64,000 bases of DNA, taken from Oceanispirochaeta sp. (GTDB taxonomy: Bacteria; Spirochaetota; Spirochaetia; DSM-2461). The translations under genes and the position numbers were made by a program. Under the pieces are notes generated by a model. It saw only the letters and a program-made list of their open reading frames with translations. It ran no database searches and had not been told where the DNA came from. This document shows positions 10,878 to 34,062 of this stretch, piece by piece; position 1 is the first letter of the stretch; every line of letters starts with the position of its first letter. The stretch covers positions 992,001 through 1,056,000 of the forward strand of contig CAXXXD010000004.1 in NCBI GenBank assembly GCA_963663385.2, written 5' to 3'.

Positions 10878-10878
10878 A

Positions 10879-11673
10879 TCAGATGAATCTTTTCTCTTTC
10901 AGAAAAGAGAAAACCGCATCAACACCCTTTCCGTCAGCGCTGACAAGCAGCTTTTCCCTTTCCTGGTACTTTTTCGTATAAGTCCTGGACACTTTTGTAA
11001 GGGAGCCCTTTAGTCCGACCTCGTCCTTGTGAAAGCCCAGTGTTTCATTATTAATCCGGTTTAATCTGTGTGCGACATCCATTTTCTGATTCTTGTATCT
11101 CACATAGGGCAGTCTGTAAGCGCTCTCCCTTGTCAGACTCAGGATGGCTGGAAGCTCCACCTTATAGGTCGCCCTTGAACGGTCATCCTCTACTTCTACC
11201 ACAGCGGATGAACCGTGGAATCCTTCCTCATCAATGCGGGAAATTCCCGACAACTGGGGGATATTCAGTAATTCCCCCAGCTGGGACGGGACGTGGGACG
11301 TGTCCCCATCGACGGCATGGGTCCCTGTCAGGATGCAGTTATACCCGGCAGTACTCAGGTATCTGCCGAGTATCCGGCTTGTTGCATAGGTATCGCTGCC
11401 TGCGTACAGCCTGTCCGTTATAACTGTTCCCCGGTCTACATCCACTCTCAGTATGTTCTCCACAAGGGGGATGACCGAGTCCGGCGCCATGGTAACCACT
11501 TCAATGAATGTTTCCGGATTTCTCTTTTTCATATTCAGGGCAAAACCAATGGCACAGGCATCATCGGGGTTGATCAGCATTTTACTGTTCTCTCGAATCA
11601 GCACATGTTTTTCATGGTCATAGCTGAAGTTGTCCACATCCGGCACGAACTTTACAGCACAGATTATTTTCAT
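10879..11673 (-). CDS. Electron transfer flavoprotein beta subunit (FixA/YgcR-like)
   Basis: CAVKFVPD, INPDD, GSDTYATS, DGDTSHV motifs. Confidence 0.92.
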   Translation of the reverse strand: MKIICAVKFVPDVDNFSYDHEKHVLIRENSKMLINPDDACAIGFALNMKKRNPETFIEVVTMAPDSVIPLVENILRVDVDRGTVITDRLYAGSDTYATSRILGRYLSTAGYNCILTGTHAVDGDTSHVPSQLGELLNIPQLSGISRIDEEGFHGSSAVVEVEDDRSRATYKVELPAILSLTRESAYRLPYVRYKNQKMDVAHRLNRINNETLGFHKDEVGLKGSLTKVSRTYTKKYQEREKLLVSADGKGVDAVFSFLKEKRFI

Positions 11674-12965
11674 TAAGCTTCCTGTACTTTCAGATTTTCC
11701 GCTTCCGGTCTGTTCAATCTGTTGTAAACCAGGGCGATGGCAATACCTGCCAGACCCAGTATACCGCTGACGATAAAATAGGCATTATACCCACCGTTGG
11801 GGCCGAAAGTATTCCACAGGAAGGTGTTTAACTGGGGCAGAATGATATCGGGCAGATATCCGATAAAAGAGATCAGACCGATAGCGGTTCCCATCATGGC
11901 CGCCTCAATTTTCGATTGTCCCAGAAGAGACCAGTAGGTCCCGCGGATGGCATAGAGAAAAGCGCCGAGGACAACAATAAGGACGGTAAACAGCCTGGGA
12001 GACGTTGTTACGGGAACAACGGCTGTCAGTCCCAGGAGAACTGCCGCACCGAGCAGAGCTCCGCTGATGGTTTGGGTCCTTCCGAATTTATCCGCCAGAA
12101 AACCGCCGATGAAACCGCCCACAGGCCGCATCCAGAGGACCACAACCATGATTGTACCAACAGTTACGGCATCAATGCCTACGTTGGACTGCAGAAAGCC
12201 GCCCAGGTAGTAAACGGTCCAGAAAACGGCGTATCCCATAAAGATTATTCCGCCCATGAGATAGACGTATTTGTTTTTAAGGAGTTTCCCCACATCTTTG
12301 AGGTGGAATTTTTCCGCTTCCGAGCGTTCTCCGCTGTTTTCCGCGTGTTCCGCCAGTTTTTCATCGCTTTCTACAAAGATCATAATCAGGACAGCTGTAG
12401 CCAGAACAATGGAAGAATAAAGATAGATAACAGAAGTCAGGGCGGAGGTTTTGTCTGCCATGGCTGAGCTTGTACCGAGGATGGCGGCAAAGACGGCCAG
12501 TCCTACTGTTCCCATCAGGGCCTCCACAACACCGCGTCCGCCGTCGAGGATTCCGAAAAAACGGCCTTCTTCACTGGCTTTGGCCAGCATTTTTACAACC
12601 TTCATATGGGAGCTCCAGAAGGTGAATACGGAAAAGAATCCCCAGAGTACAAAGATTATATTAACGGCACCCAGAGTCGGAACCTGGGCAAACCAGAAAC
12701 CGCAGAGGGCCGTACCTGTCAGGGAAATGGCGATAAGCCATTTTGCCGAGAAGCGGTCACTTAACAGTCCGCTGGGAATGTATCCGAGAACAAACGCCAT
12801 TCCCATCATGGAATAGAAATTATTCATCTGGGGCAGGGTCATGTTGAATACTTCGAGAATTGTTTCCTGATAGTTGGTTTTAAGGTAAATTACGGGATAG
12901 ATGGCTCCCGCTGCCAGCACAATCAGAAAAAACTGAAAATAACGCCTGAAATTCTCCTTTTGCAT
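11673..12965 (-). CDS. MFS transporter, YqcE-like
   Basis: 12 TM helices; PSGLLSDRFS and GFLADKFGR motif A; EEGRFFGILDGGRG. Confidence 0.88.
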   Translation of the reverse strand: MQKENFRRYFQFFLIVLAAGAIYPVIYLKTNYQETILEVFNMTLPQMNNFYSMMGMAFVLGYIPSGLLSDRFSAKWLIAISLTGTALCGFWFAQVPTLGAVNIIFVLWGFFSVFTFWSSHMKVVKMLAKASEEGRFFGILDGGRGVVEALMGTVGLAVFAAILGTSSAMADKTSALTSVIYLYSSIVLATAVLIMIFVESDEKLAEHAENSGERSEAEKFHLKDVGKLLKNKYVYLMGGIIFMGYAVFWTVYYLGGFLQSNVGIDAVTVGTIMVVVLWMRPVGGFIGGFLADKFGRTQTISGALLGAAVLLGLTAVVPVTTSPRLFTVLIVVLGAFLYAIRGTYWSLLGQSKIEAAMMGTAIGLISFIGYLPDIILPQLNTFLWNTFGPNGGYNAYFIVSGILGLAGIAIALVYNRLNRPEAENLKVQEA

Positions 12966-20689: not shown

Positions 20690-21022
20690 ATTATATTGTC
20701 TGGCTATCAGATGATTTATTTCCTCCCGGGATAGTACATCCGGCAGTCGTTTTCTTTCCCTGATTCCGTTAAGTTTATATGGGCGCTCTTTTTTAAGGAC
20801 CAGTTTTTAGAACAGTTTTATGGCAGACCATGCCAGCCGTCGCTGTTCGCTGGTTTTCTGCTCTCTGTCGAGGAACTCTGCAATTCTTGCGTCCGGTTCC
20901 GGTTCCGTTTTTCTGTTGAAGCGAAGAAACTGATCCAGATACAGGCAATACTCCCGAATGGTATTGCGGGAATAACTCCTGTTTCTCATTTCCCTTCGGA
21001 AAATATCCAGATAATTCTGCAT
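20690..21022 (-). pseudogene. intI: Integron integrase remnant (N-terminal SAM-like domain only)
   Basis: MQNYLDIFRREMRNRSYSRNTIREYC...AWSAIKLF then a premature TAA, KLVLKK..., a frameshift, then KRLPDVLSREEI (20752-20717, IntI RLPxVLSxEE motif); no catalytic RHRY domain follows; divergent from an attC array. Confidence 0.8.
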
Positions 21023-21068: not shown

Positions 21069-21097
21069 TTGCATTTCCGTTAAAATAAATCTAAAAT
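21069..21097 (+). promoter_or_regulatory. Candidate cassette promoter Pc
   Basis: TTGCAT-17 bp-TAAAAT immediately upstream of the attI junction. Confidence 0.55.
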
Positions 21098-21104
21098 AAA
21101 TCAC

Positions 21105-21129
21105 GCAATGCGCATAATTGTAGTTATTT
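21105..21129 (+). other. Candidate attI site, crossover G/TT at 21123-21124
   Basis: CATAATTGTAGTTATTT; GTTATTT is complementary (1 mismatch) to R'' ACATAAC at the end of cassette 1. Confidence 0.6.
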
Positions 21130-21148
21130 GTCATTCTTTGGAGACTTA

Positions 21149-21796
21149 ATGAAAGAAATAAATATACCAAAACTGTATAAACAATACTTTGTGGATAAAA
21201 ATGAGGAAAGAAAAGTTTTATTCGAGAAATTGAAGGATACGTACAAACCACAGAAAGGTATTTACCCAGGAAGTTTCGTGCATATCTCTCCTTCTTTTTA
21301 TATTCAAGAAATGCTTTATATCGATTCTGATAAGAGAATTACAAAATTTTTTGAAGATGAAAAAGTCTTAAAATATATAAACCTTAATAAAACTTATGAA
21401 GAAAAACCTAAAATTAAATCATTGCAAGCGGACTTTTCAATTAATTTACCAATTGATGAGAATTATTTCGATATTATGTTTTCCTTTTTTGCAGGTTTTA
21501 TATCACAATCCTGCAAAAAATATTTGAAAAATAATGGTATACTGGTGTGTAATAACAGTCATGGTGATGCGAGCATCGCTTATACTGACAAAGAATATGA
21601 ATTAGTTGCTGTAATAAAAAGAAATGGAAACAATTTCAGCATAAATGATAAAGATTTGGATGAGTATTTCATAAAAAAAGATGGAACCTCCATTGATACA
21701 GATAAAGTTCTAAGTAAGATGATAGGAGAAAATTTTACAAAAAAAGGGTATGCTTATGTGTTTAAATTTAACCGATACCCAAAAAACAACACATAA
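21149..21796 (+). CDS. Cassette 1: putative SAM-dependent methyltransferase-like protein
   Basis: GGAG RBS before ATG 21149; IYPGSFVH, FDIMFS, YLKNNGILV; stop codon inside R''. Confidence 0.6.
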   Translation: MKEINIPKLYKQYFVDKNEERKVLFEKLKDTYKPQKGIYPGSFVHISPSFYIQEMLYIDSDKRITKFFEDEKVLKYINLNKTYEEKPKIKSLQADFSINLPIDENYFDIMFSFFAGFISQSCKKYLKNNGILVCNNSHGDASIAYTDKEYELVAVIKRNGNNFSINDKDLDEYFIKKDGTSIDTDKVLSKMIGENFTKKGYAYVFKFNRYPKNNT

Positions 21797-21870
21797 CAGC
21801 TAATATGCGGTTCCGCTTTGCTTCACTCAAATCGCCTGCGGCGACTTCGCATATTCGCGGAACGTTATAG
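21791..21870 (+). repeat. attC site 1 (intact, 80 bp)
   Basis: ACATAAC-AGCT-AATATGCG ... CGCATATT-CGCGGAAC-GTTATAG. Confidence 0.88.
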
Positions 21871-21966
21871 GCAATAAGCGCCGGCAGAAATTGTTTCTTT
21901 TGTTGGAAGAACTCGCTATCCATGGCTCGTAATAACTTTAAAGTTATAAAGGAGTGTGATAATATA

Positions 21967-22620
21967 ATGAATATGACATTATCTATTATAGGATTCTTCG
22001 GTGGCCTTTTATGTGCTATAGCCGATATGTTATTGGATATCAAAGGTAAAGATAATCTAAAATGTGGTACTAAAAAAATCATGGACAGCAACTGGGTCAA
22101 AATGCCTTCGTGGCGTTTTATCACATCCATTATAATTGTAATGTTTGCAGTTCCGATGTATAGTATGGGAGTTCTCTCGTTAGCAAATCAAATTGCGCTA
22201 AATAATAAATCCCTCGGTGATTTACTTAAACTTTCAATTTTTATTGGAGCAATGGGAGGTTTTTTTATTCATACCCTTATTTGTATTGTTCCTATTATCT
22301 ACAAGGAAATTATGAAAGAAAATAATTTTGAGCTTGCAGATCGAGTAATTACCAATGTGTATAAAGCTGTTAAAATCCCATTTGTTGTACTGTATATTAT
22401 TTTAATATTGATACCTGCAATTATTGTAATTTTTTCAATTAATACAGGATTATTATATGTCCCTAAATGGTTCGTTCTTCTGAACCCGGTAACATTTCAA
22501 ATAATAGGATGGGTTCTTCGAGCAATAAAAAAGGATTGGTTTTATGAAGTTCCTTCTATTTTTATGGCTAGTCTTGGTTTAGCTATGTATGGAATTATTG
22601 GAATAGTTAATTTGATTTAG
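21967..22620 (+). CDS. Cassette 2: multi-pass membrane protein (DUF6796-like)
   Basis: AAGGAG RBS; about 6 hydrophobic helices; CAIADMLL N-terminal motif. Confidence 0.6.
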   Translation: MNMTLSIIGFFGGLLCAIADMLLDIKGKDNLKCGTKKIMDSNWVKMPSWRFITSIIIVMFAVPMYSMGVLSLANQIALNNKSLGDLLKLSIFIGAMGGFFIHTLICIVPIIYKEIMKENNFELADRVITNVYKAVKIPFVVLYIILILIPAIIVIFSINTGLLYVPKWFVLLNPVTFQIIGWVLRAIKKDWFYEVPSIFMASLGLAMYGIIGIVNLI

Positions 22621-22683
22621 GCTTATTAACTGAATAATATACTGTGGCCGTTTGCCATCCATGGCTAACTGCTTTTAAATAAT

Positions 22684-22777
22684 CTGGCACTTACTGCAAA
22701 TATATGTGGCGCCTTCGGCATAAGCTTCGCAACATTTTTGCTACGCAAAAAAGTCATATATTTGCAAAACACTAGAC
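22684..22777 (+). repeat. attC site 2, degenerate (R'' deleted, R' mutated)
   Basis: Perfect TGCAAATATATG/CATATATTTGCA inverted repeat (22695-22706 / 22755-22766); R' reads ACTAGAC; CTATAAC is missing. Confidence 0.65.
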
Positions 22778-22969
22778 GCCATTTTTTTACTAGGGAATAC
22801 AAAATGAAAAATACCAAAATACTATTAATCATATTTACAGGCATTTCATTATACTTAGTAGCTTTTAAATTCCTTCTAATGTTTCAGGATCGTTCTGCTA
22901 CTGCAAAGTAAGCGGTAATTCTCTCCATCTTGCGTGATTTCGAAATGATTATATACTCCATGAAAAATC

Positions 22970-23266
22970 ATGGAGGAACCTAATATGACCAACTGGAATT
23001 GGCCTGAATTAATCGAAGAACAAAAACAGAGCGGGAAAACAATTTCTGAGTTCTGCGCAGATAAAGGAGTTCACTATACATCTTTCTACAAGAATCGAAA
23101 AAAATTAAAGAAAAGCAGTTTTATTGAAATCAAACAGAAAGCCCCGGTATTACAGCCACAAAACCCCACAATGATACTCAGATACAAGGATTTCTCATTG
23201 GATCTGGCATCAGGTTATAACAGGCAATCCCTGATAGATCTTCTGAAGATTCTGAGAGAGTTGTAA
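22970..23266 (+). CDS. tnpA: IS66 TnpA (HTH accessory protein)
   Basis: WPELIEEQKQSGKTISEFCADKGVHYTSFY; position in the IS. Confidence 0.88.
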   Translation: MEEPNMTNWNWPELIEEQKQSGKTISEFCADKGVHYTSFYKNRKKLKKSSFIEIKQKAPVLQPQNPTMILRYKDFSLDLASGYNRQSLIDLLKILREL

Positions 23267-23610
23267 TGTTTGTTGACCTGAACGAATACCGGATCTTTCT
23301 GAGACCCGGCACGACAGACTTAAGAAAAGCGATCAACGGATTATCTCTGTTTATCCAGAATGAAATGAATCATGATTTATTCGCCAAATCGCTATTCCTC
23401 TTTTGTAACCGGCAGAGAAAACTTCTGAAAATTGTCTACTGGGATAATACCGGTTTTTGTCTCTGGCAGAAGAGACTGGAAGAGAACAGATATCCCTGGC
23501 CGGAAACAGATGAAGATGCTAAAGAGATCAGCATGGATGAATTGAAAATGCTCCTGACGGGAATAGACTTTTTCAAAGCGCATAAAAAATTATCATATTC
23601 CCGTATTTAG
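23266..23610 (+). CDS. tnpB: IS66 TnpB accessory protein
   Basis: DLRKAINGL, LFLFCNR, KIVYWD..GFCLWQKRLE. Confidence 0.95.
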   Translation: MFVDLNEYRIFLRPGTTDLRKAINGLSLFIQNEMNHDLFAKSLFLFCNRQRKLLKIVYWDNTGFCLWQKRLEENRYPWPETDEDAKEISMDELKMLLTGIDFFKAHKKLSYSRI

Positions 23611-23649
23611 AGATTTTATAATTATAGAAACTTTGATAGAATTCCCCGT

Positions 23650-25212
23650 ATGGAGAATGAAGAACAGCATTTAAGAGAACAACTTGATGCACAAAAAATA
23701 GAAATTGCTGAACTGAAAAGACTTAATGCCATTCTCCAGGAGCAAGTAGCAAAACTGAACCTCCTGCACTTTGGAACAAAATCAGAGAAGATAACTGCCG
23801 AAGATAAGAAACAAGCTTCTCTCTTCAATGAAGCGGAAGATAGTGCTTTTGCTCAGAATGATGAAGAGCAGGAGAAAAATGTTATTGAAACGGTTGAGGT
23901 CGGTTCCTACAAGAAAAATATTAAAAAATCCGGCCGGAAACCTCTGCCGGCAGATCTGCCGAGAGAGATCGTGGAATATGATATTCCGGATAAAGATAAG
24001 ATCTGTGCCTGCGGAACAGAAAAGACCTGTATCGGTGAAGATGTTTCCGAGAGAGCAAAAATTATTCCGTCAAAAGTCGTTGTTATTCAGGAACGTAGAA
24101 AAAAGTACTCCTGCAAGAATTGTGAAGGGACGACTCTTGATGAAGCTGCTGTACAGACCGCAGAAGGAGCAAAGCATCTGGTCGCGGGCAGTATTGCCGA
24201 TGAAAGCCTGCTCGCTTGGAGTATAAGCGAAAAGTTTGAGTTCGCTCTTCCTTTCTACAGGCAATCAAAACGGTTAAACCAGATAGGCATACCGATCCCC
24301 CGGGCGACATTGAGCAATCTTACGATAAAATCGGCAACGGCATGTAAGCCTCTATATGATTTGCTGAAAGAAAACATTAAATCCGGTTCCATTATTAATG
24401 CCGATGAGACGAGAGTTCAGGTTCTAAAGGAACCGAAACGAAAAGCTTCAGATAAATCATGGATGTGGGTCTTTCTCAGAGGAGATCCCGATAAAAAATG
24501 TGTCATATTTCAGTATGAGCAAGGCCGATCCCATGCAATTCCGTTGGATTTCTTGGAAAATTACTCTGGCTGGGTTCAAACTGATGATTTTGAGGCCTAC
24601 CATACTGCCCGAAAAAAAGTTGATGGAGATATAAAGCATGTCTTATGCTGGGCCCATGCCAGAAGAAAGTTCTTCCAATATTGGGAATCAACCAAGAAAA
24701 AAGATGCAGAAGCAAAGCAAATTCTCGACCTGATAAAGGATCTGTTTGAACTGGAATCATTACGGGATAATTATTCGCTAAAAGGGTTTCATAAACAGCG
24801 ACAAAATAGAGCAGAACCGATACTAGATAAGTTACAGAAAAAACTGACGAAGCTTTATCCTCAAGTACCTCCTTCTTTAGAGTTCGGTAAGGCGATGAAG
24901 TATACATTGAGCAACTGGGAGCAGTTGGTTCTATATCTGAAAAATCCTGTTTTGACTCCTTCGAACAATAGCGCTGAAAATGCAATCAGACCCTTCGTAA
25001 TCGGGAGAAAAAACTGGCTTTTTGCCGGAAGCCCGAAAGGTGCTGAATCATCGGCAATTCTGTACAGTCTCGTTGAATCTGCGAAGATGAACAATCTTCC
25101 AGTTTATGCTTACTTGTACTTTATCTTCCGGGAATTGCCCTGCTGTGAAAAACAGAGTGATTATGAAAAATTACTTCCCTATAATTTAACTGCTGAAGAT
25201 ATTGCAATCTGA
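23650..25212 (+). CDS. tnpC: IS66 DDE transposase TnpC
   Basis: FGTKSEK, zinc-finger Cys, ADET, QTDDF, CWAHARRKF, NNSAENAIRP..IGRKNWLF. Confidence 0.96.
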   Translation: MENEEQHLREQLDAQKIEIAELKRLNAILQEQVAKLNLLHFGTKSEKITAEDKKQASLFNEAEDSAFAQNDEEQEKNVIETVEVGSYKKNIKKSGRKPLPADLPREIVEYDIPDKDKICACGTEKTCIGEDVSERAKIIPSKVVVIQERRKKYSCKNCEGTTLDEAAVQTAEGAKHLVAGSIADESLLAWSISEKFEFALPFYRQSKRLNQIGIPIPRATLSNLTIKSATACKPLYDLLKENIKSGSIINADETRVQVLKEPKRKASDKSWMWVFLRGDPDKKCVIFQYEQGRSHAIPLDFLENYSGWVQTDDFEAYHTARKKVDGDIKHVLCWAHARRKFFQYWESTKKKDAEAKQILDLIKDLFELESLRDNYSLKGFHKQRQNRAEPILDKLQKKLTKLYPQVPPSLEFGKAMKYTLSNWEQLVLYLKNPVLTPSNNSAENAIRPFVIGRKNWLFAGSPKGAESSAILYSLVESAKMNNLPVYAYLYFIFRELPCCEKQSDYEKLLPYNLTAEDIAI

Positions 25213-25518
25213 TCCATCAGTCCTAAAATGCTGTCAATGTGGGAAGAATTACCGCTTACACTGCAAATCCCCCAGCAGTTTCTGTTTCAGCCAACTTAGT
25301 TGCATCGGCCCTGATTTTCATTTTTTTCTTCCTGGCTTCTATTCTTTTTTCCTTTAGTATTTTTACTTGTATTCAAATTTTAAAATTTAATATATTTCTT
25401 TTTATTGGCTATTCAATTTTGCTTTTCTTATCTGACTTCACTCTTGTCGGTATTTCATTTATAGCATTAGTAATTATATTAATTAGAGGCCTTTTACACT
25501 CAAAGCGTAAAAAACAGC

Positions 25519-25605
25519 GTATAAAAAAATATACGTTACGCTTTGCTTCACCCAAATTGGCCGATGGCTCTGTGGTTTGCTTCGTATATTCTCGAAACGT
25601 TAGGT
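25519..25605 (+). repeat. attC site 3 (R'' eroded)
   Basis: GTATAAA..AATATACG ... CGTATATT-CTCGAAAC-GTTAGGT. Confidence 0.78.
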
Positions 25606-25662
25606 GTAATGCTTGACAGAAAAAAAAATCAAAAATAATCTTAAATGAACGGAGGATAAATA

Positions 25663-26289
25663 ATGAAAATTAAGGTTCTAATAGTTATTTTTACAGTTAT
25701 TCTTTTGGCTGGGTGTGCAAGTGGTCCAAAATCACAGGCATACGTATATAAAGATCAATATTGGGATGAGCTTATTTCGCGAAATAAGGTAGTTCAATTA
25801 CTTGATACTCGGTTTGAAGTGGCTTCTCAAGTTGGAAATACACAAAAAGGAGCTCCTTTAGAAAACATTGAAAAAGATGAAATAACTCCTATTGTTGTTG
25901 AAATTCTTAAGAAACATGATTTTGAAGTAAATGTTGTTGGTGGAATCCAATTAGTAGACTCAAATTATACTAACTTTCCACAGGAAAGAATACCCGAAGA
26001 GTCAAGAGATAAATTCTTTGTCCAGGCGTCTTCAATTTACCTTGATAGAAGTTCAACAAATTCAAATTACCAATCTATTTTTAAACTTTACTATGTAACT
26101 CCCGAAGGCGATATTATAAAATTAGGTTTTGGATTGTCAGAACAAAGAGTAGAACATTATGATTCCCTTAATGCTGATGATTTAATTCAAATAAAACAGA
26201 ATGTAAGTACTTCAGATGGTTTCGAAACAATAGTTCTTTCTGTTGTTAAATCTTCTATAGAAACGTTTTTAACCAAAAAAGAGCTCTAA
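25663..26289 (+). CDS. Cassette 4: hypothetical lipoprotein
   Basis: GGAGG RBS; lipobox LLAGC; own promoter TTGACA(25613)-17-TAATCT. Confidence 0.75.
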   Translation: MKIKVLIVIFTVILLAGCASGPKSQAYVYKDQYWDELISRNKVVQLLDTRFEVASQVGNTQKGAPLENIEKDEITPIVVEILKKHDFEVNVVGGIQLVDSNYTNFPQERIPEESRDKFFVQASSIYLDRSSTNSNYQSIFKLYYVTPEGDIIKLGFGLSEQRVEHYDSLNADDLIQIKQNVSTSDGFETIVLSVVKSSIETFLTKKEL

Positions 26290-26304
26290 ACCCCAAAGCA
26301 TTAC

Positions 26305-26420
26305 ACCTACCAGCAAATATACGCTGCGGCTTCGCCTTGGCCTTCGGCAAATAAACCCTTTGAATATATTCAAGCCCTCAAGGGGCCGGGGTTACTTCGT
26401 ATATTCTCGGAATGTTTAGG
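26305..26420 (+). repeat. attC site 4 (116 bp)
   Basis: AAGCATTACACCTACC is complementary to the cassette start GTTAGGTGTAATGCTT; AATATACG...CGTATATT; R' GTTTAGG. Confidence 0.8.
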
Positions 26421-26487
26421 CAATAAGCACTTTAATTTTTAATAAAATAGAGAAAATGCCACCCCGGCGGCTCGTATTGGAGGTAAA

Positions 26488-26892
26488 ATGAAACATTTAG
26501 GTTCGTGTCTTTGCGGAAATATCAAATATGAAATAAGAGGGAATTTTGAGAACTTTTTTTTCTGTCACTGTAAATCTTGTCGTAAAGATACTGGGTCAGT
26601 TCATGCTTCAAATCTTTTTTCAACAACTGCAACATTAAAATGGTTGAAAGGAGAGGAAAAAGTAAAAATGTATAACCACAAAAATTCAGGCCACATAAAA
26701 AGCTTCTGTCCTAACTGTGGCTCTGCATTACCTAATATTCAAATGGATAGTAAACTACTTGTTGTTCCTGCAGGAAGTCTTGATACAGATATAGAAATGG
26801 TTCCTACTGGTCACATCTATTTAAAAGAGAAAGCGAATTGGGATCACAATCTTGAGATGATTCCACACTATGAGGATTTGCCAAAAGAATAA
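26488..26892 (+). CDS. Cassette 5: GFA (CENP-V/glutathione-dependent formaldehyde-activating) family protein
   Basis: GSCLCG, CHCKSCRK, FCPNCGS. Confidence 0.92.
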   Translation: MKHLGSCLCGNIKYEIRGNFENFFFCHCKSCRKDTGSVHASNLFSTTATLKWLKGEEKVKMYNHKNSGHIKSFCPNCGSALPNIQMDSKLLVVPAGSLDTDIEMVPTGHIYLKEKANWDHNLEMIPHYEDLPKE

Positions 26893-26975
26893 AATGTGTA
26901 GAAATCTGAATTTACCGGAAATCAGGCATCGTTCGCCGCCATCTGCACACATTTCAATATATCAGAGCTTAATGC

Positions 26976-27061
26976 CTATAACAGCGTTTTATATGCGGTG
27001 CCTGCGACGTGGGCTTCGTAACAGCCTATAGCAAACGTCATATAAACGCGGAACGTTATAG
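26976..27061 (+). repeat. attC site 5 (intact, 86 bp)
   Basis: CTATAAC-AGCGTTTTATATG ... CATATAAACGC-GGAAC-GTTATAG. Confidence 0.88.
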
Positions 27062-27134
27062 GCAATAAGCGGTTAGATTTTCTATAAGCAATAAGAATCC
27101 GCCATATATGGCGGATAAAAAAAATAAAAAAGTA

Positions 27135-27165
27135 TTGCAGTTGTCCCAACGTCAAGTTCTATACT
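27135..27165 (+). promoter_or_regulatory. MerR-type promoter with a 19-bp spacer
   Basis: TTGCAG-19 bp-TATACT with a TTG..CAA dyad in the spacer, upstream of a MerR gene. Confidence 0.6.
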
Positions 27166-27210
27166 CCAAAGTGATGATCATCAATAACTGTAAAAGAATG
27201 GATATTAACT

Positions 27211-28131
27211 ATGAATGATTCTGTATCAATAAACGAGATTTCTTCTCTGTTAGGAGTAACAAGCAGAACTATAAGGTTTTGGGAATCGGAAGGTCTTTTT
27301 GAATGTAAGAGACATCCATATTCAGGTCATAGGCTTGTTGAAAACACTATGGTAAATAAAGTTAAACTTTGTTCAGAACTGCGAAATATTGGAATTTCAA
27401 TAAAAGATATTAAACGGATTTTCGAATCGCAATCACTAGCTTCTGTAACAAAAGTTATTGAAGAAAACCTTGCATCAATAGATGCCGATTCTCAAATCTT
27501 TGAGAATCGAAAAGCAATGTTAATAATGCTTTTTAATATTCTCAAAACAGAAGAAAAGATCGCTGCAGGTTCTTTCATTGATTTTCATTCTTTTCTAATC
27601 AATTTACTTCAAGAAAATAACTTGAAGAAATCACAGGAGAAGAAAATGATAAATAGTGACCTGAAAAAAGTGTATGAAATAGTAGAGCTTCCAAAAATGA
27701 GAGTGGTTTATAATATTTCAGTTAGTAAAAGTCCTGAAGATGAAGCAATAGAACCGATACTGGAATGGATAAAAGAGAAAGGGCTTCTTGGTGTATCAAG
27801 ATTGTTTGGTGGAAATGTGAAACCATTTCCCAAGGATTCAAATAGTGAATATGGCTATGGGATGTGTGCGTCAATACCGGCAGATATTGATGTTCCAGAT
27901 CATTTGAAAGAGATGGAAATCCCGGGTGGTTTATATGCACTACTCCCTAGCGATGATGATATTGCTGATTCATGGAAAAAGTTTATGAAAAGTTTTAAGA
28001 AGGATAAGAAGTATTGCTCCGATAGATCTAGATTGTGTTTTGAAGAGCATATTTATTATGGAAGGCCTGGCGATAGTGGGTACTCCTTTAAAATAAATTT
28101 ATTAGAACCAATAAAAGATGTTAATCAGTAG
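27211..28131 (+). CDS. Cassette 6: MerR family regulator with GyrI-like effector domain
   Basis: SINEISSLLGVTSRTIRFWESEGL, GISIKDIK; C-terminal YGYGMC, IPGGLYA, CFEEH. Confidence 0.88.
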   Translation: MNDSVSINEISSLLGVTSRTIRFWESEGLFECKRHPYSGHRLVENTMVNKVKLCSELRNIGISIKDIKRIFESQSLASVTKVIEENLASIDADSQIFENRKAMLIMLFNILKTEEKIAAGSFIDFHSFLINLLQENNLKKSQEKKMINSDLKKVYEIVELPKMRVVYNISVSKSPEDEAIEPILEWIKEKGLLGVSRLFGGNVKPFPKDSNSEYGYGMCASIPADIDVPDHLKEMEIPGGLYALLPSDDDIADSWKKFMKSFKKDKKYCSDRSRLCFEEHIYYGRPGDSGYSFKINLLEPIKDVNQ

Positions 28132-28203
28132 ATAATATCTTTAGCAGAGAGGCCGTTCGCCATCCTTGGCTCACTACTTGTTATTCAACGCAGCGCTTAC
28201 TAC

Positions 28204-28293
28204 CTATAACAGAGTTTACAAGGTTGGGCCTACGGCCTCTCCCAAATTGTCTTGCTGAGCAAGACAACTTTCTGTAAAATCAAAACGTTAAGT
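28204..28293 (+). repeat. attC site 6 (90 bp)
   Basis: CTATAAC-AGAG-TTTACA ... TTGTCTTGCT/AGCAAGACAA hairpin ... TGTAAA-ATCAAAAC-GTTAAGT. Confidence 0.82.
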
Positions 28294-28306
28294 GAAATCT
28301 CGTTTT

Positions 28307-28335
28307 TTGACTGGAGACAGGATTTTTGATAAAAT
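28307..28335 (+). promoter_or_regulatory. Cassette-internal sigma70 promoter for the MBL gene
   Basis: TTGACT-17 bp-TAAAAT with an extended -10 TGn. Confidence 0.65.
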
Positions 28336-28378
28336 GATATCAATGAGGTTTGCATGATAATTTTCAAAGGGAAATAAC

Positions 28379-29227
28379 ATGAAAAAAGCAGTAAAATATT
28401 TCACTATTTGTATGGTATTAGTATTTACCATTTCAAGTTGCTCCAGAAAAGATGAAAAACTGTCTGTATTTCAATTAACCGGGGAATTAAGAATTACTGA
28501 GATTGAAAGCAATATATTTTTAGTTACGCACAGCTTTCCCTGGCCGGGTAATTCTTTGATGATTGTTATGGATAAAAAGAATATTCTCTGGATCGATACA
28601 CCATATACACCGGAGGCCACTGCTTTAGTATTGAACTGGATTGAAGAAAAGTATGGAAAAGGGTATTCAATTACAGAAATCAATACAGGGTTTCATATTG
28701 ACAATTTGGGTGGCAATCAAGAATTAGTAAAAAGAAATATACCAATATATGGCTCTAATTTGACGTGCGAGCTTCTTGGAACAAGAAGCAAAAACACGAT
28801 GCTGAATATGATGAATTGGCTAAAAGGGGAAAAATACGAAGATTACAGAAACGTGTATTCTGATTTTACATTTTACAGCCCTACTATTACTTTTAACATT
28901 CATGATGAACAAACAATTGTTTTTGGATCAAATGAAGTGATTATATATTATCCTGGACCAACACATACGTATGACAATCTGGTTGTCTATATACCAAGTC
29001 AAAAAATTCTTTTTGGAGGATGTATGATACTGTCCACCGATGCCGATAAAGTTGGTTATATTGAAGATGGGAACTTGGAAGAATGGGCAAATTCACTCAC
29101 AAAATTAGAAAATCGTTTTGATAATATAAGAGTCATTGTTCCTGGTCATGGAAATCCAGGAGACTCTACGCTAATAGCTCATACAAAAGACATCGTTAAT
29201 GCTTCTGGAGAAACGACAGAAGAATGA
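28379..29227 (+). CDS. Cassette 7: subclass B1 metallo-beta-lactamase, SPS-1/SPM-1-like, lipoprotein
   Basis: IDTPYTPEAT, INTGFHIDNLGGN, YPGPTHTYDNLVVY, LFGGCMI, GNLEEW, VPGHG; lipobox ISSC. Confidence 0.88.
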   Translation: MKKAVKYFTICMVLVFTISSCSRKDEKLSVFQLTGELRITEIESNIFLVTHSFPWPGNSLMIVMDKKNILWIDTPYTPEATALVLNWIEEKYGKGYSITEINTGFHIDNLGGNQELVKRNIPIYGSNLTCELLGTRSKNTMLNMMNWLKGEKYEDYRNVYSDFTFYSPTITFNIHDEQTIVFGSNEVIIYYPGPTHTYDNLVVYIPSQKILFGGCMILSTDADKVGYIEDGNLEEWANSLTKLENRFDNIRVIVPGHGNPGDSTLIAHTKDIVNASGETTEE

Positions 29228-29238
29228 AAAATTATTTC

Positions 29239-29275
29239 GCCTAACAGCGAATATGCGGTTACGCCTCCGGTTCCA
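29239..29275 (+). repeat. attC site 7, left half only
   Basis: ATTTCGCCTAAC-AGCG-AATATGCG pairs with the cassette start GTTAAGTGAAAT; the right half is replaced by coding debris. Confidence 0.72.
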
Positions 29276-29281
29276 TACTGT

Positions 29282-29445
29282 GATAGAGAAGAACTAGTTA
29301 AAATATTGAGTGATACAGAATCAATGAAATTTTATCCGGCACCGTTTAGCCATAAGAAAGTAGAGAACTGGATAAAATGGAATGAAATTTGTGAAATATT
29401 CTGAGAAAGAAGTTATGGGAGAAGCGGTTCGGGAAATACTCTAAT
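29282..29445 (+). pseudogene. Internally deleted RimJ/RimL-type GNAT cassette remnant
   Basis: DREELVKILSDTESMKFYPAPFSHKKVENWIKWN fused out of frame to FVKYSEKEVMGEAVREIL; R'-like GTTATAT at 29463. Confidence 0.55.
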
Positions 29446-29512
29446 GTATACACCGATGAAATGTTATATATCAGCAGAACATTCCGTCTGATTATCTTTG
29501 TAGAGATGTTAA

Positions 29513-29806
29513 ATGGAAAATATTGAAACATATAAAGCAACAGATGGTGAGAACATATTAGGATTTATCTCCTTACAGGATGAGTATCTTGCTGCCATTT
29601 TCGTGAGATCTGAATTCCAGGGGAGAGGGATTGGATCTTTATTATTAAACCATGCAATGGATCTCCGTAATAATCTGCAGTTAGAAATGTTCTGTAAAAA
29701 CCAAAAGAGTGTAGAATTTTATAAAACAAAAGGATTTTCTATAATTTCCGAATCAATAGATAATGAGACAGGAGAAAATGAGTTTGTCATGGGGTGGCAG
29801 AAATAA
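29513..29806 (+). pseudogene. N-terminally truncated YiaC/YjaB-like acetyltransferase
   Basis: LGFISL..YLAAIFVRSEFQGRGIGSLLL, N..SVEFY..KGF; N-terminal part of the fold is missing. Confidence 0.7.
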
Positions 29807-29812
29807 AACCGG

Positions 29813-29877
29813 GCATAGCTCGAATATGCGATATCGATTCACCACAGTCAACTTCGAATATTTGTGGGATGTTATAT
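29813..29877 (+). repeat. Degenerate attC site
   Basis: GCATAGC-TCGAATATGCG ... TTCGAATATT ... GTTATAT. Confidence 0.62.
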
Positions 29878-29946
29878 CAAAATTCAAGTATAATTGTGTT
29901 AATTATACCGGAACAAACCGTGGTGCGGTAGTAGAAAGAAGAGTAA

Positions 29947-30840
29947 ATGATTAAATATACAGAAAATATTGAAGATGTTAAGAAATTTATCCAGGAGAAT
30001 TATAATCAAACCATTGATTTGAGTTCTTTAGCGAATGTTGCCTGTTTATCATCTTTCCATTTTTCTAGGATTTTTCGTTCGATTACGGGTTATACGCCTA
30101 TGCAATATCTAAAGAAAATCCGACTTGAAAAATCAATCTACTATCTGACACATAGTTCCTTAAATGTCTCCGAAGTTGCATATAAATGTGGTTTCAATTC
30201 AATATCAAGTTTCAATTCTTCCTTTAAAGCACAATATAATAGAAGACCGAATGAATTCAGAAACATACAAAAAAGCAAGATTAAGGAAGAATTCGGCAAT
30301 AATCAGAAAGAGTTTTCCATAGAGAACAAACATAATCTCAATAACTCGTTTTTAAGGAGAATTTGGGATATGAATGTGAATATCAAAGAACTGCCGGAAT
30401 ACAGAATTGCATTTTTCAGGCATGTCGGAAGTTATTTAAATACAGGAGAAAACTGGAATAAATTACTTAAATGGGTTGAAGCAAAGGATCTATTTAAAAC
30501 AAATCCATTGTTTATTGGAATATCACGAGATGATCCAGCAACAACAGAGGAAAATGCATGTAGACATGATGCCTGTGTAACTCTGCCGGGAGACTTTAAT
30601 GAAGAGGCCGATGGGAGTGAGGTCTTGTATGATAGAATAGCATCTGGAAAATACGCAATCTATGAGTTTTATGATACTATAGATAAGTTGGGATTAGTAT
30701 ACAGAAATCTTTTTATAGAATGGTTACCCCAAAGTGATTATGAAATGGATTGCAGGCCATGTTTAGAAATAAATTTAAATAATCCGGCTGATGATCCTGA
30801 AGGAAAAAGCAGATGTAACATCTGTATTCCAATAAAATAG
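29947..30840 (+). CDS. Cassette: AraC family regulator with GyrI-like domain
   Basis: LANVACLSSFHFSRIF, EVAYKCGFNSISSF; DDP..T..CRHDAC, GKYA, WLPQS. Confidence 0.92.
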   Translation: MIKYTENIEDVKKFIQENYNQTIDLSSLANVACLSSFHFSRIFRSITGYTPMQYLKKIRLEKSIYYLTHSSLNVSEVAYKCGFNSISSFNSSFKAQYNRRPNEFRNIQKSKIKEEFGNNQKEFSIENKHNLNNSFLRRIWDMNVNIKELPEYRIAFFRHVGSYLNTGENWNKLLKWVEAKDLFKTNPLFIGISRDDPATTEENACRHDACVTLPGDFNEEADGSEVLYDRIASGKYAIYEFYDTIDKLGLVYRNLFIEWLPQSDYEMDCRPCLEINLNNPADDPEGKSRCNICIPIK

Positions 30841-30910
30841 TACCTATTTGGACCGTCTTAAAATACACCCTTGTATTTTGGGGGAATAAATGAAGTAAGC
30901 TATAATCTTC

Positions 30911-30992
30911 ATATAACAGGGAATCCGCGGTTACACCTTCGGCTCCATTCAAAGGATCTCCTGTAACTTAGCATATTCTCAGAACGTAAAAT
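30911..30992 (+). repeat. attC site, eroded
   Basis: ATATAAC (perfect complement of the cassette start GTTATAT) ... GCATATTCTCAGAAC-GTAAAAT. Confidence 0.72.
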
Positions 30993-31016
30993 GAAATACC
31001 AGGGGGCGTAATCAAG

Positions 31017-31199
31017 TTGAAAAAGAAAATTCGGCGATATGTTTTAATACTTTTAGTTTTTATTCTATTTATCCCGGCAATCTATTTGGGGCTCTTGTTT
31101 TATATTCATGATTTTGATCATAATTTTTTAAAAATAGATCAATGTTTAGATAATGGCGGAAGATGGGATTATAACGATTGTGAATGTAAGCAGGAATAA
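31017..31199 (+). CDS. Cassette: small membrane-anchored protein
   Basis: One TM helix then IDQCLDNGGRWDYNDCEC; followed by an internally deleted attC (31210-31243). Confidence 0.55.
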   Translation: MKKKIRRYVLILLVFILFIPAIYLGLLFYIHDFDHNFLKIDQCLDNGGRWDYNDCECKQE

Positions 31200-31506
31200 G
31201 GCTGTAAAAAGATAACCGCCGCATATTTTCTGAGCCGTTAAATTAAATCCATTATTTTAGGGAAATAAAAATGTTAAAAGAATTCATAGGAAAATCTGTT
31301 CATATATAGTGGTATCTACTCTTATTTAACCAACCCGGAGAAAGTTGTCATGATTGATGTTGATGAGAGCTGGTTAAAGCTCGAAAGTCGAAGCAAAATA
31401 ATACTGCCGGATGTAAATAAAATCAGCAAGGTTAAAACGAATAAATGATGTATTTTATATATTGTTGAAATGTTATAGGCAATGATTCAGCTGGAGAAAA
31501 ACGTAC

Positions 31507-31986
31507 ATGAAATATATGTGTCCATTGATAGTTGTAAGTGATGTAAAACGCTCACGGGAATTCTATGAAAAGATTCTGAAACAGACTGTCAAATATGATT
31601 TCGGGGAAAATGTGACATTTGCTGGTGATTTCGCCATACATGAAAAAGCCCATTTTGAATCACTGATAAATAATGCTGAAATTAAAGAGAAATCGAATAA
31701 TTTTGAACTTTATTTTGAGCATGATGATTTGGAAGAGATGGTGGTTAGAATAAAGGAATCAGGGCTGGAGTTTGTACATGAAATAGTAGAACAGCCCTGG
31801 AAGCAGCAGGTTCTAAGGTTTTATGACTATGATAAAAATATGATAGAAGTCGGAGAAAGACTGGAGCATACAGCGTATAGATTATCAAAGCAGAATTATT
31901 CGATTGAAGACATATGCAGAATAACGTATCTGGAAAAAGAAATTGTTGAAAACGCGATAGATGAGTATTCGCATCTGGAGGGATAA
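31507..31986 (+). CDS. Cassette: VOC/glyoxalase family protein
   Basis: LIVVSDVKRSREFY, ELYFE, EQPWKQQVLRFYDYDKNMIEVGE; preceded by R' GTTATAGGCAAT at 31472. Confidence 0.9.
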   Translation: MKYMCPLIVVSDVKRSREFYEKILKQTVKYDFGENVTFAGDFAIHEKAHFESLINNAEIKEKSNNFELYFEHDDLEEMVVRIKESGLEFVHEIVEQPWKQQVLRFYDYDKNMIEVGERLEHTAYRLSKQNYSIEDICRITYLEKEIVENAIDEYSHLEG

Positions 31987-32115
31987 CTATTTTAAAAATA
32001 ACAGATTCAGGACTGGAGTAAATATCGGAACCTGGCAAGGAGCCGTCGGTTCGTATATAAAGTTTTTTCTCAGCCTTAATTTCGGGTTAAAGTCTGGGTT
32101 TGGATTTTTCTAGTC

Positions 32116-32310
32116 TTGGGCCTGACTACAGTTATTTCCTGGTCTTTGCCGGAATCCTTCGGAGAATCCCGTTTGCCAATACTTTTACCAAATATTTATA
32201 TCTTTCCTGTGTATTGGTTCTTGATGGTATTTTTAGGCGGCGGTCAGGAAGAAATTGGCTGGGGTTCCTGCATTGCACCCGGTAAATATCATGAAGTATT
32301 ATGGAAATAA
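32116..32310 (+). pseudogene. Fragment of a CPBP (CAAX/Abi) intramembrane protease
   Basis: FLGGGQEEIGW motif 1 only; the rest is absent. Confidence 0.55.
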
Positions 32311-32394
32311 AAATGAAATGGAGATTCCTAATGCCGTTGATCTGATATTATTTCAAGTATAATATCAACGTTGAGTGCAATAGGGAGGAGCAGG

Positions 32395-34062
32395 ATGAGA
32401 ACAGGTTTAATTCTATTAATAACAATGACAGTCTCGCTTTCGGTGTTTCCCAATGGAAGGACGGAAGGCCCTGCCGTTTCCGGAGCCGGCGAGAGCAGAG
32501 CGATTCGTATTGATAATAAAACGGAATTGCCGGAAGCAGGATCATCTGAATATCATGGTTCATCTGCATTTAAAGATTATACCGGCCGTGATCCGGATTA
32601 CAGTCTTACTTATAGGGATGGCGAGTACCCTCCTGATTGGACCGCCTGGCTGGAAGGGGATTTCCCCCGGTATCAGGACTGGGGACATGATCGTACCTCA
32701 GAAACAATCGACTTCTCATTTAACAATAGAGAAAATACTCTGGAAATCGGAGTCCCGGCGGAGCAGAATCCCGGCGGGGCATCCTTCTTTTTTACCGGAG
32801 GCAGGTTCCAGACCGGTGAAGAGAGAGAAATCGGCCGTTTTTTTCTCAGATTCAATGTTCTGTTCAACCCTGAGTCTGTCGGAACGTGGCAGTATTACTT
32901 CTACGGAATGGCGCCTACCCCCAGTTCCTTTTACCTGGCAGGGGATCAGAAGGGATACTTTGAACTTGGACATCCCGAATTCGGGGTTTTGGCCAGTGCT
33001 GAGGCTCCTTCCTTTGTTCCCGATCAATATAATCTTGTTGAATTGCTGGTTTCAGCGGATAAGGTCTCCCTTAATGTGAATGAAGCGGAAATCTTTGAGT
33101 TCCATTATACATTTTCAGAACTCTTCGGTGAGTCCGTATGGAAGGTGACTGTTCCGGAGGAAAAAGGTCTCGGACTTCATATAGACGAAATATCAATATG
33201 GAGGATAGAGCTTTCAAAGGTTTCTGAGCTTCCCCGGGATAAACGGGATTTTTTCCTCTATGATACGGGAGAAGAAAAGCTCAGTCTTCACCTGACGGCG
33301 GTTCCATCAGGGGAATTCCTTATGGGACACCCCTCAGTGACCGGCAGGCAATCAAAGGTAACCCTCGATTCCTTTATGATCGGTACCTATCCGGTTACAT
33401 ACGGAGAGTGGAATGAAGTCGCCGGATGGGCGGAACAATCCGGGTATACGTTCAGGAACAAGGCACTGCACGGGAAGATCTTCTATACCACGGATCTGGA
33501 TACATTGAAGACCCCTGCAACAGGAATAAGCTGGTATGATGCGGCAGCCTGGTGCAATGCCATGTCGGAATACCAGGGACTGACTCCCCTGTATTACAGC
33601 GATTCGTCCATGCAGAGGGTTTACAGGAACTCCAATCAAATTGATGCAGAGATCTTCTGCAAATGGGAGTCCGATGGCTACCGGCTGCCGACAGAAGCTG
33701 AGTGGGAATATGCGGCACGGTCGGCGGGAACGACTGACGGCAGCTTTTCCAGCGGCTCTCCGGACCCCCGCATTACATCGATTTTCAATGAAAACAGACA
33801 GAATAGTCTTGCCGTGGATACAATGAAGCCCAATCCTCTAGGTTTATTCGATATGAGCGGTAACGCTTATGAGCTATGCTGGGACTGGTTTTCAGACGCA
33901 CTTCCCTCCGGAGTCAATCCCAGAGGACCGGCAACTGGAACAGAGAGAATAACACGCGGCGCATCCTGTTACAGCCCGGCCCGGGAAGACTCATTTCGGG
34001 AGCGTTCCACAGAGCCCTGGGATGAAGGTTTTGAATGCCTTAGAGTTGTCCGGTGCGAATAG
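32395..34062 (+). CDS. Exported FGE-sulfatase (SUMF1/EgtB/PvdO) domain protein
   Basis: Signal peptide; GEFLMG, SWYDAAAWCN, GYRLPTEAEWEYAAR, PNPLGLFDMSGN. Confidence 0.88.
   Translation: MRTGLILLITMTVSLSVFPNGRTEGPAVSGAGESRAIRIDNKTELPEAGSSEYHGSSAFKDYTGRDPDYSLTYRDGEYPPDWTAWLEGDFPRYQDWGHDRTSETIDFSFNNRENTLEIGVPAEQNPGGASFFFTGGRFQTGEEREIGRFFLRFNVLFNPESVGTWQYYFYGMAPTPSSFYLAGDQKGYFELGHPEFGVLASAEAPSFVPDQYNLVELLVSADKVSLNVNEAEIFEFHYTFSELFGESVWKVTVPEEKGLGLHIDEISIWRIELSKVSELPRDKRDFFLYDTGEEKLSLHLTAVPSGEFLMGHPSVTGRQSKVTLDSFMIGTYPVTYGEWNEVAGWAEQSGYTFRNKALHGKIFYTTDLDTLKTPATGISWYDAAAWCNAMSEYQGLTPLYYSDSSMQRVYRNSNQIDAEIFCKWESDGYRLPTEAEWEYAARSAGTTDGSFSSGSPDPRITSIFNENRQNSLAVDTMKPNPLGLFDMSGNAYELCWDWFSDALPSGVNPRGPATGTERITRGASCYSPAREDSFRERSTEPWDEGFECLRVVRCE

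Follow-up and report, generated by a model that had tools for sequence, protein, structure and literature searches.

A probable SPS-1-type metallo-beta-lactamase gene in a damaged cassette of a decayed spirochaete chromosomal array

The chromosomal sources of the integron-borne carbapenemases IMP and VIM are described as unknown in the accessible part of PMC13616975. The locus considered here, in the genome (5.3 Mb) of an Oceanispirochaeta sp., raises the question of whether a carbapenemase-like gene standing in a chromosomal cassette array is what it seems to be, whether it arrived as a cassette, and whether it can still leave. The window analysed is a stretch of 64,000 nucleotides (contig CAXXXD010000004.1, positions 992,001 to 1,056,000). 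An earlier note had proposed that it encodes a lipoprotein metallo-beta-lactamase resembling SPS-1 and SPM-1, probably a new allele of a carbapenemase family, packaged as an integron cassette.

The lactamase gene and its predicted protein

The gene and its putative expression signals are located as follows (window positions):

28379-29227 (+): open reading frame of an SPS-1-type (Gly116) subclass B1 metallo-beta-lactamase, 282 residues, with a predicted lipoprotein signal at Cys21
28307-28335 (+): predicted sigma70 promoter within the cassette, TTGACT-17-TAAAAT, with an extended -10 TG
28366-28372 (+): ribosome-binding-like, purine-rich AAAGGGA ahead of the ATG, read from the sequence

The open reading frame has a GC content of 0.34, compared to 0.465 for the genome. 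All the motifs that had been listed in the earlier note were found in its product: ISSC starts at residue 18 (with Cys21), INTGFHID at 101, GPTH at 193, GGCM at 213, and PGHG at 255. The Zn2 ligands (D120, C221, and H263) and the Zn1 ligands (H118 and H196) are all present, and the canonical B1 His116 is replaced by Gly104, the same as in SPS-1. In the pairwise mapping, the SPS-1 residues W48, G96, Y97, H98, D100, T187, H188, N192, C207, and H245 correspond to W55, G104, F105, H106, D108, T195, H196, N200, C215, and H257 of the lactamase, respectively; the published Thr146 of SPS-1 could not be placed, as this number gave a Glu. In an alignment of 105 sequences (the lactamase plus 104 of the best 120 of 443 homologs), H118, D120, H196, C221, and H263 are invariant, and G116 and N200 are at least 90% conserved.

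The SPM-1-style central insertion was recovered as well: it forms helices 127-147 and 151-160 in the AlphaFold model (pLDDT 93), and in the sequence alignment it is a gap with respect to GIM-1 and continuous with SPS-1. G104, T195, N200, and helices 127-160 place the protein among the SPS-1-type (Gly116, group B1-5) enzymes. From the sequence search on the PDB, SPS-1 (6CQS) was the top match (E 1e-59; next best 9e-34); probing by fold with the model retrieved SPS-1 first (E 2.6e-30, TM 0.96, rmsd 1.3 A) and SPM-1 second (TM 0.89-0.91), and all 40 of the 40 matches listed are B1 lactamases. The kinship to SPS-1 and SPM-1 is thus borne out. Of the 55 NCBIfam families matching the protein, the best 25 are all B1; the best of them, NF033088 (B1), gave 180.7 bits, under its curated cut-off of 200. 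Clustering with non-lactamase MBL-fold hydrolases was the outcome that had been named as speaking against this identification, and no such protein occurs among the listed sequence and fold matches. Furthermore, dN/dS values of 0.10-0.18 with respect to four relatives (the fifth being saturated) showed that the gene is under purifying selection.

The N-terminus (MKK...ISSC21) carries a basic N-region, a hydrophobic core, and the lipobox with Cys that had been claimed, all of them predicted. A Cys at or near position 21 is found in most of the nearest relatives and is missing in SPS-1 and in many distant ones. The predicted lipoboxes of environmental MBLs went unused in E. coli, according to the accessible text of PMC13616975. 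The protein database entry (P0001, 271 residues) begins at Met12, which cuts the signal peptide (28379-28411); the relatives favour the upstream start over Met12.

As far as the available part of 10.1101/336024 describes it, SPS-1 binds two Zn and has His116 replaced by Gly plus a water held via Gly96, Thr187, Asn192, and the backbone of Tyr97; it cleaves imipenem and meropenem, with a carbapenem kcat of about 500 per s and high Km values, whereas penicillins, cefuroxime, and cephalexin are not hydrolysed. By analogy, Zn2 of the lactamase would be held by D108, C215, and H257, and Zn1 by H106, H196, and a water in place of His116, which G104, the backbone of residue 105, T195, and N200 would position; helices 127-160 together with W55 would keep out penicillins as well as bulky cephalosporins, and the signal peptide would be lipidated at Cys21. 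The protein is probably an SPS-1-type B1 enzyme and a lipoprotein carbapenemase, and its carbapenemase activity is what we infer from SPS-1. Judged by its 39% identity to SPS-1, the one Gly116 enzyme with known kinetics, it is a separate, new, and unnamed family rather than an SPS-1 allele; because of this value, it does not belong to the SPS family in the narrow (allele) sense. An identity of 70% is used for MBL family clustering in PMC6598227, as given in the text available. The claim of a new carbapenemase-family allele therefore stood as to novelty and not as to the allele, and close unnamed relatives with up to 78% identity are already in public databases.

The claim that the gene has its own promoter fared unevenly. 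In the 91-nt leader, a site of at least 10/12 occurs in 3% of shuffles, and one with the TG, as seen here, in 0.24%, but the region as a whole has six promoter-like sites compared to 6.0 expected by chance. A strong cassette-internal promoter is thus predicted, from which the lactamase would be expressed 7 kb from the array head. The part of the leader around AAAGGGA is similar to the leaders of the four closest relatives.

The cassette, its array, and the recombinases

The features of the array to which the gene belongs are:

20702-21022 (-): tyrosine-recombinase remnant at the array head, reduced to the N-terminal SAM-like domain, with one in-frame stop and without the catalytic domain
21069-21129 (+): by eye only, a possible Pc-like promoter (TTGCAT-17-TAAAAT) together with an attI-like first crossover box (GTTATTT)
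21123-31990 (+): low-GC (0.35) cassette array with eight full-length attC matches on one strand; all cassette open reading frames are on the + strand
about 22902-25265: an IS66 element that has inverted ends and interrupts a cassette
about 28204-28293 (+): intact attC of the preceding MerR/GyrI cassette (covariance model, fold)
29239-29276 (+): left half of the attC of the lactamase cassette (R'' GCCTAAC, L'', start of the loop), right half deleted
29277-29390 (+): part of the interior of a GNAT acetyltransferase gene, joined to the half attC; a remnant of the next cassette
29813-29877 (+): next downstream attC, shortened, conserved R'' triplet altered, no attC hairpin, fold z 0.0
30911-30992 (+): second downstream attC, after the AraC/GyrI cassette, conserved R' triplet altered, fold z -0.6

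The attC sites were searched for with covariance and HMM models, which replaced two hand-written scanners (one with canonical spacer lengths missed most sites, the second was too strict). The covariance model of the short attC family was built from seven other attC-like sites of the array, and with this held-out model the upstream attC was matched at 28203-28294 with 41 bits (E 2e-9); its fold z is -3.6. At 28287-28293, the R' box of this site (GTTAAGT) bounds the lactamase cassette on the 5' side. The cassette ends, GTTAAGTGAAAT (28287) and ATTTCGCCTAAC (to 29245), are complementary at 10/12 positions; among 4120 ORFs of this genome, 1.0% attain a complementarity of at least 8/10. The cassette form is thus supported by both the ends and the intact upstream attC. 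The loss of the right half of the gene's own attC, which had also been noticed, was confirmed: without its right arm the site gave 15 bits (E 0.08) and a fold z of 0.0, and it runs into the GNAT fragment, which starts at about 29277 and matches PF13302 with E 0.004, below the family cut-off. The remaining R'' and L'' are 83% alike over 35 nt to the site at 30914, and the L'' half is 83-91% alike to the sister sites of the array. Contigs of two studies cover 26565-33500 with zero differences, and a contig of a third one covers 27970-29854, i.e., the cassette and the junction, with five differences; one of the sequencing runs compared may be the source of the window itself. Since the contigs of several studies span the same junction between half attC and GNAT fragment, this is no assembly error. 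The lactamase cassette, with an R' start and a complementary R'' end and no complete, foldable attC of its own, is a damaged cassette.

In the short attC family, 42 sites covary, with a score of 0.417 compared to 0.18 for shuffled ones, in an alignment fitted to the model. Applied to other spirochaetes, the model recovers arrays there as well, with 28 sites in genome G124 and 17 in G096; it gave zero matches to the attC of four clinical class 1 integron loci. BLAST with the first attC of the window and with the site of the SPS-1 locus gave no meaningful plasmid match.

The accessory genes of the island comprise DUF6796, GFA, MerR/GyrI, GNAT, AraC/GyrI, glyoxalase, and IS66. The read depth of IS66 is about eightfold in two runs, which suggests several copies. 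One run (X6) represents a strain variant without 29855-31219, in which the joint connects two attC-like right halves some 17 nt ahead of the R' boxes. The sole Rfam match nearby is a cobalamin riboswitch (RF00174, 34838-35035, + strand, 107 bits), which, by eye, precedes apparent cobalt chelatase and ABC transporter genes.

The recombinase remnant is 62% identical to the short recombinase of genome G011, 50% to that of G180, and about 30% to the recombinases heading short-attC arrays in G124 and G096 (loci compared: L134:7647-8462, L135:3044-4117, L136:268-1065, and L142:1441-1872). Three full-length short recombinases (265-357 residues) lack the IntI insertion, and the remnant-based comparison gave no match to the canonical IntI of the genome. 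On sequence grounds, the in-cis recombinase of the array is of a truncated, short XerA-like type, not a canonical IntI. In G124 and G096, the short recombinases head arrays whose attC sites belong to this short family, with a divergent orientation in one case and co-orientation in the other, and together with these sites they may form a cassette system of its own.

An intact canonical IntI lies on another contig (G000:C2:1688005, 408 residues, 381 bits, over the cut-off); no intact IntI with the IntI insertion stands beside the lactamase array. In the surroundings of the former (G000:C2:1672000-1691500), a divergent array is interrupted by three ORFs of equal length (426 residues); scanning one of them identified a group II intron reverse transcriptase (RVT_1 and GIIM), which is located at an attC-like end. 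In G096 and G124, the arrays headed by canonical IntIs belong to another attC family, of about 140 nt, and one short-type attC is inside the canonical IntI array of G096 (L130:15740-15832).

According to the earlier note, excision would need a downstream site; this route is doubtful too, as a conserved triplet is missing in each of the next two attC sites downstream. Given the truncated recombinase and the damage to these two sites, the lactamase cassette is probably stranded. Among the contigs of four runs, no joint excising the lactamase at its own boundaries is listed. The gene would have arrived in a cassette whose attC was of the short spirochaete type; subsequently the recombinase would have been truncated, a deletion would have taken the right half of the attC and part of the next cassette, and the downstream sites would have decayed, possibly in this order.

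The SPS-1 locus and the relatives of the lactamase

The gene encoding SPS-1 was located in genome G101, its product being identical to the SPS-1 PDB chain over residues 32-276:

L075:16996-18042; G101:C1 about 3,021,995-3,023,041 (-): locus of the SPS-1-encoding gene, assigned by identity to the PDB chain

A 154-nt site, running from an AAC box to GTTATGA, ends sixty bases upstream of the gene start and matches repeats in the arrays beside the intact IntIs of G096 and G124. This long attC family was first found with the SPS-1 upstream site as query; an HMM of 25 long-type sites, from which the SPS-1 site was excluded, retrieved it with E 1e-9 at nearly full length in 829 kb searched. At the gene end, a matching R'' box (8/10) is followed by no right arm, i.e., its own attC is truncated. 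Upstream lies a ParE/RelE-like toxin-antitoxin pair, and downstream a DUF1330-GNAT, a mutator-family transposase, and two further attC halves. The long-family HMM also gave a weak match (14.9 bits, E 0.008) to the attC of the clinical aac(6')-Ia cassette (L145:5906-6025) and matched no other attC in the four class 1 integron loci; this agrees with the Spirochaetes assignment in the part of PMC8352920 available. As the SPS-1 gene, too, sits behind a cassette recombination site, it is likely, as these data suggest, that the SPS-1-type group moves between anaerobes as cassettes.

The lactamase gene was found in 0 of 10 congeners and, counting the genome of the window, in 2 of 38 family and 14 of 401 class genomes; the profile search detected the family in 2 of the 301 genomes sampled from the phylum of Wukongibacter. 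In a tree of 44 sequences (quick method), the lactamase groups with relatives from three phyla. The check suggested earlier, i.e., whether homologs are flanked by attC sites, gave a divided answer: a significant adjacent match was found in 3 of the 48 distinct relatives with DNA, and none of the 48 stands between two intact sites. These three are the SPS-1 locus, L060/L073 (70% identity; match downstream, E 8e-5), and L003 (66%, Wukongibacter, Bacillota; match upstream, E 5e-4, and two more sites nearby). The L003 matches (7895-7972, 10806-10895, and 11621-11731, around the lactamase) are of spirochaete type, and in the genome (Wukongibacter sp. M2B1) no integron integrase scored over the cut-off. 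Of the four closest relatives, two adjoin significant matches, one of them from Bacillota. L002/L034 (75%) has a weak half-site match (E 0.07), and L001 (78%, a Mariniphaga MAG, Bacteroidota) a weak one (E 1.7), its gene having a GC of 0.33 in a locus of 0.44. L061 and L016/L050 are cassette-like by eye only, and the attC-like flanks of L061/L074 and L016/L050 rest on such reading; the other 41 of the 48 gave nothing with the short and long attC models (one search on faster filters). With a significant adjacent attC match in only three of the 48 relatives, a cassette existence does not hold for the family as a whole.

In the strict cassette-end test (at least 8/10), only the lactamase and SPS-1 passed among the 42 loci with sufficient flanks (those of another 7, out of 49, were short); for L001, L002, L003, L060, and L061, this test lends no support to cassette status. 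The attC-like flanks of L016, L073, L003, and L074 have fold z values of -0.3 to -1.7 (-2.1 for a shorter cut of L074) and are at best degenerate. A clustering statistic of attC-adjacent tree tips was dropped, as its labels took in weak and by-eye cases. In plasmids (20 records), the best relatives are clinical B1 enzymes with about 30-32% identity, and no relative above 32% was found. The locus of the 70% relative in G124 (L073:3000-12000) continues with a GNAT gene, IS elements, a PF10706 gene (aminoglycoside 2''-adenylyltransferase-like), and a long-type attC, and appears as another decayed array.

In the accessible text of PMC5637372, SPS-1 is classed as B1 despite the missing His116, Berglund et al. 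treat SPS-1 and G76 as Gly116 B1-5 enzymes, and neither is tied to integrons. G76 was considered as the present lactamase and, by eye, is another Gly116 protein. According to excerpts of PMC6598227, 1N7 from hospital sewage adds to the SPS-type enzymes; in those of PMC13616975, B2 enzymes are placed, with low support, inside a His116-less lineage of Spirochaetia and Clostridia.

Competing explanations and known systems

According to these data, we consider it quite probable that the gene encodes an SPS-1-type (Gly116) B1 enzyme, predicted to be membrane-anchored and carbapenem-preferring, and that the gene, now likely stranded, lies in a cassette of a chromosomal array that has decayed. It is unlikely that the cassette is still mobile, with the intact canonical IntI elsewhere (G000:C2:1688005, 381 bits) excising the lactamase plus downstream DNA through the upstream attC and a downstream site: this IntI, the short-type attC in the canonical IntI array of G096, and the strain variant, joined inside attC-like sequence, would fit such a scenario, but both downstream sites are unfolded and altered in a conserved triplet, the variant joint is not at the crossover between G and TT and the lactamase is retained, the canonical IntIs of G096 and G124 head arrays of the other attC family, and the lack of a boundary-exact joint in the contigs of the four runs adds a weak argument. 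We give slightly less credit to the idea that the protein, while related to SPS-1 in fold, acts in nature mainly on something other than a beta-lactam, with carbapenemase activity being weak or incidental. The spread over anaerobes of several phyla, the non-mobile context and genome-like GC of some distant members, the high Km values of SPS-1 (in the accessible text), and the score under the NCBIfam B1 cut-off are in line with it; the conservation of all SPS-1 zinc ligands and water-network residues, the lack of non-lactamase MBL-fold proteins among the listed matches, and the reported SPS-1 kcat speak against it.

It is very improbable that the gene was never a cassette and was put beside the attC by another route, with coincidental flanking boxes. 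The 91-nt leader with its promoter is longer than in the relatives, most of which lack attC signals; on the other hand, the complementarity of the ends, the likeness of the L'' half to the sister sites, the same strand and GC as the array, and the attC remains beside the nearest relatives argue against coincidence. Beyond the reading of a stranded SPS-1-type cassette, a wider scenario can be depicted, which is possible and rather doubtful: Gly116 (SPS-type) carbapenemases might be an old cassette-borne pool circulating among anaerobes of at least three phyla (Spirochaetota, Bacillota, and Bacteroidota) via two attC families, a short one, served by recombinases without the IntI insertion, and a long one, common to clinical class 1 aacA cassettes. 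SPS-1 would be one such cassette, and intact versions in unsequenced arrays could be captured by mobile integrons.

The SPS-type enzyme class and the spirochaete integrons have each been described before; the novelty lies in the two coming together, both at this locus and at that of SPS-1, and traces of this are seen in other phyla. The earlier note had seen in this gene a link between environmental spirochaetes and the integron pool. That spirochaetes feed this pool is already published (PMC8352920 and PMC3607928, the latter describing Treponema integrons, in the parts available), while the short attC family matched no attC in the four clinical loci. The spirochaete-type resistance cassettes in the accessible text of PMC8352920 are all AAC(6') genes, with zero lactamases; SPS-type cassettes are unmentioned in the available parts of PMC7370490, PMC10740994, and PMC6663966, and we found no report on cassette carriage of the SPS-1-type clade in the open-licence literature. 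The two loci are tangible examples of environmental anaerobes with a B1 lactamase in a chromosomal cassette array. The lactamase scores under the cut-off for naming by NCBIfam, and most of its relatives carry the annotation 'MBL fold metallo-hydrolase', so that surveillance with such models would miss the family. It is also a second case, this time a predicted lipoprotein, for testing the Zn1 site of two histidines plus a water that has been proposed as a B1/B2 intermediate. Its near-term clinical weight is low, as the cassette looks stranded and no plasmid relative was found.

Compared to known systems, the lactamase is closest to SPS-1, sharing Gly116, H118/H196/D120/C221/H263, the second-shell Thr and Asn, Trp48, and the extended helices that lie over the active site, with the predicted model overlaying at 1.3 A; the SPS-1 gene in G101 is also behind an attC, with its own attC truncated. 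It differs in its 39% identity, in the signal region (without Cys in SPS-1, with a lipobox in the lactamase), and in the upstream attC (long family, about 150 nt, in SPS-1; short, about 85 nt, in the lactamase). SPM-1, whose gene has ISCR4 as its context, and PAN-1 are likewise B1 enzymes with a central helical insertion. Unlike the lactamase, both keep His116, according to the accessible parts of 10.1101/336024 and PMC6663966; SPM-1 is 28-29% identical to it, and PAN-1 is chromosomal, with no mobile element. The MBL cassettes of class 1 integrons (IMP, VIM, GIM, and DIM) share a B1 enzyme between attC sites, but they encode His116 enzymes with at most 32% identity, reside in mobile proteobacterial IntI1 integrons, and in four loci have attC sites unmatched by the short spirochaete model. 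NDM-1 shares the lipoprotein anchor, predicted in the lactamase, and belongs to another B1 clade, with His116 and no central helices; lipidation stabilises NDM. Lastly, the chromosomal integrons and CALIN-type arrays of spirochaetes (PMC3607928, PMC8352920, and PMC4889954) show the same low-GC cassettes on one strand, attC hairpins, IS insertions, and integrase loss, whereas the recombinase remnant of the lactamase array is nearest to short enzymes without the IntI-specific insertion.
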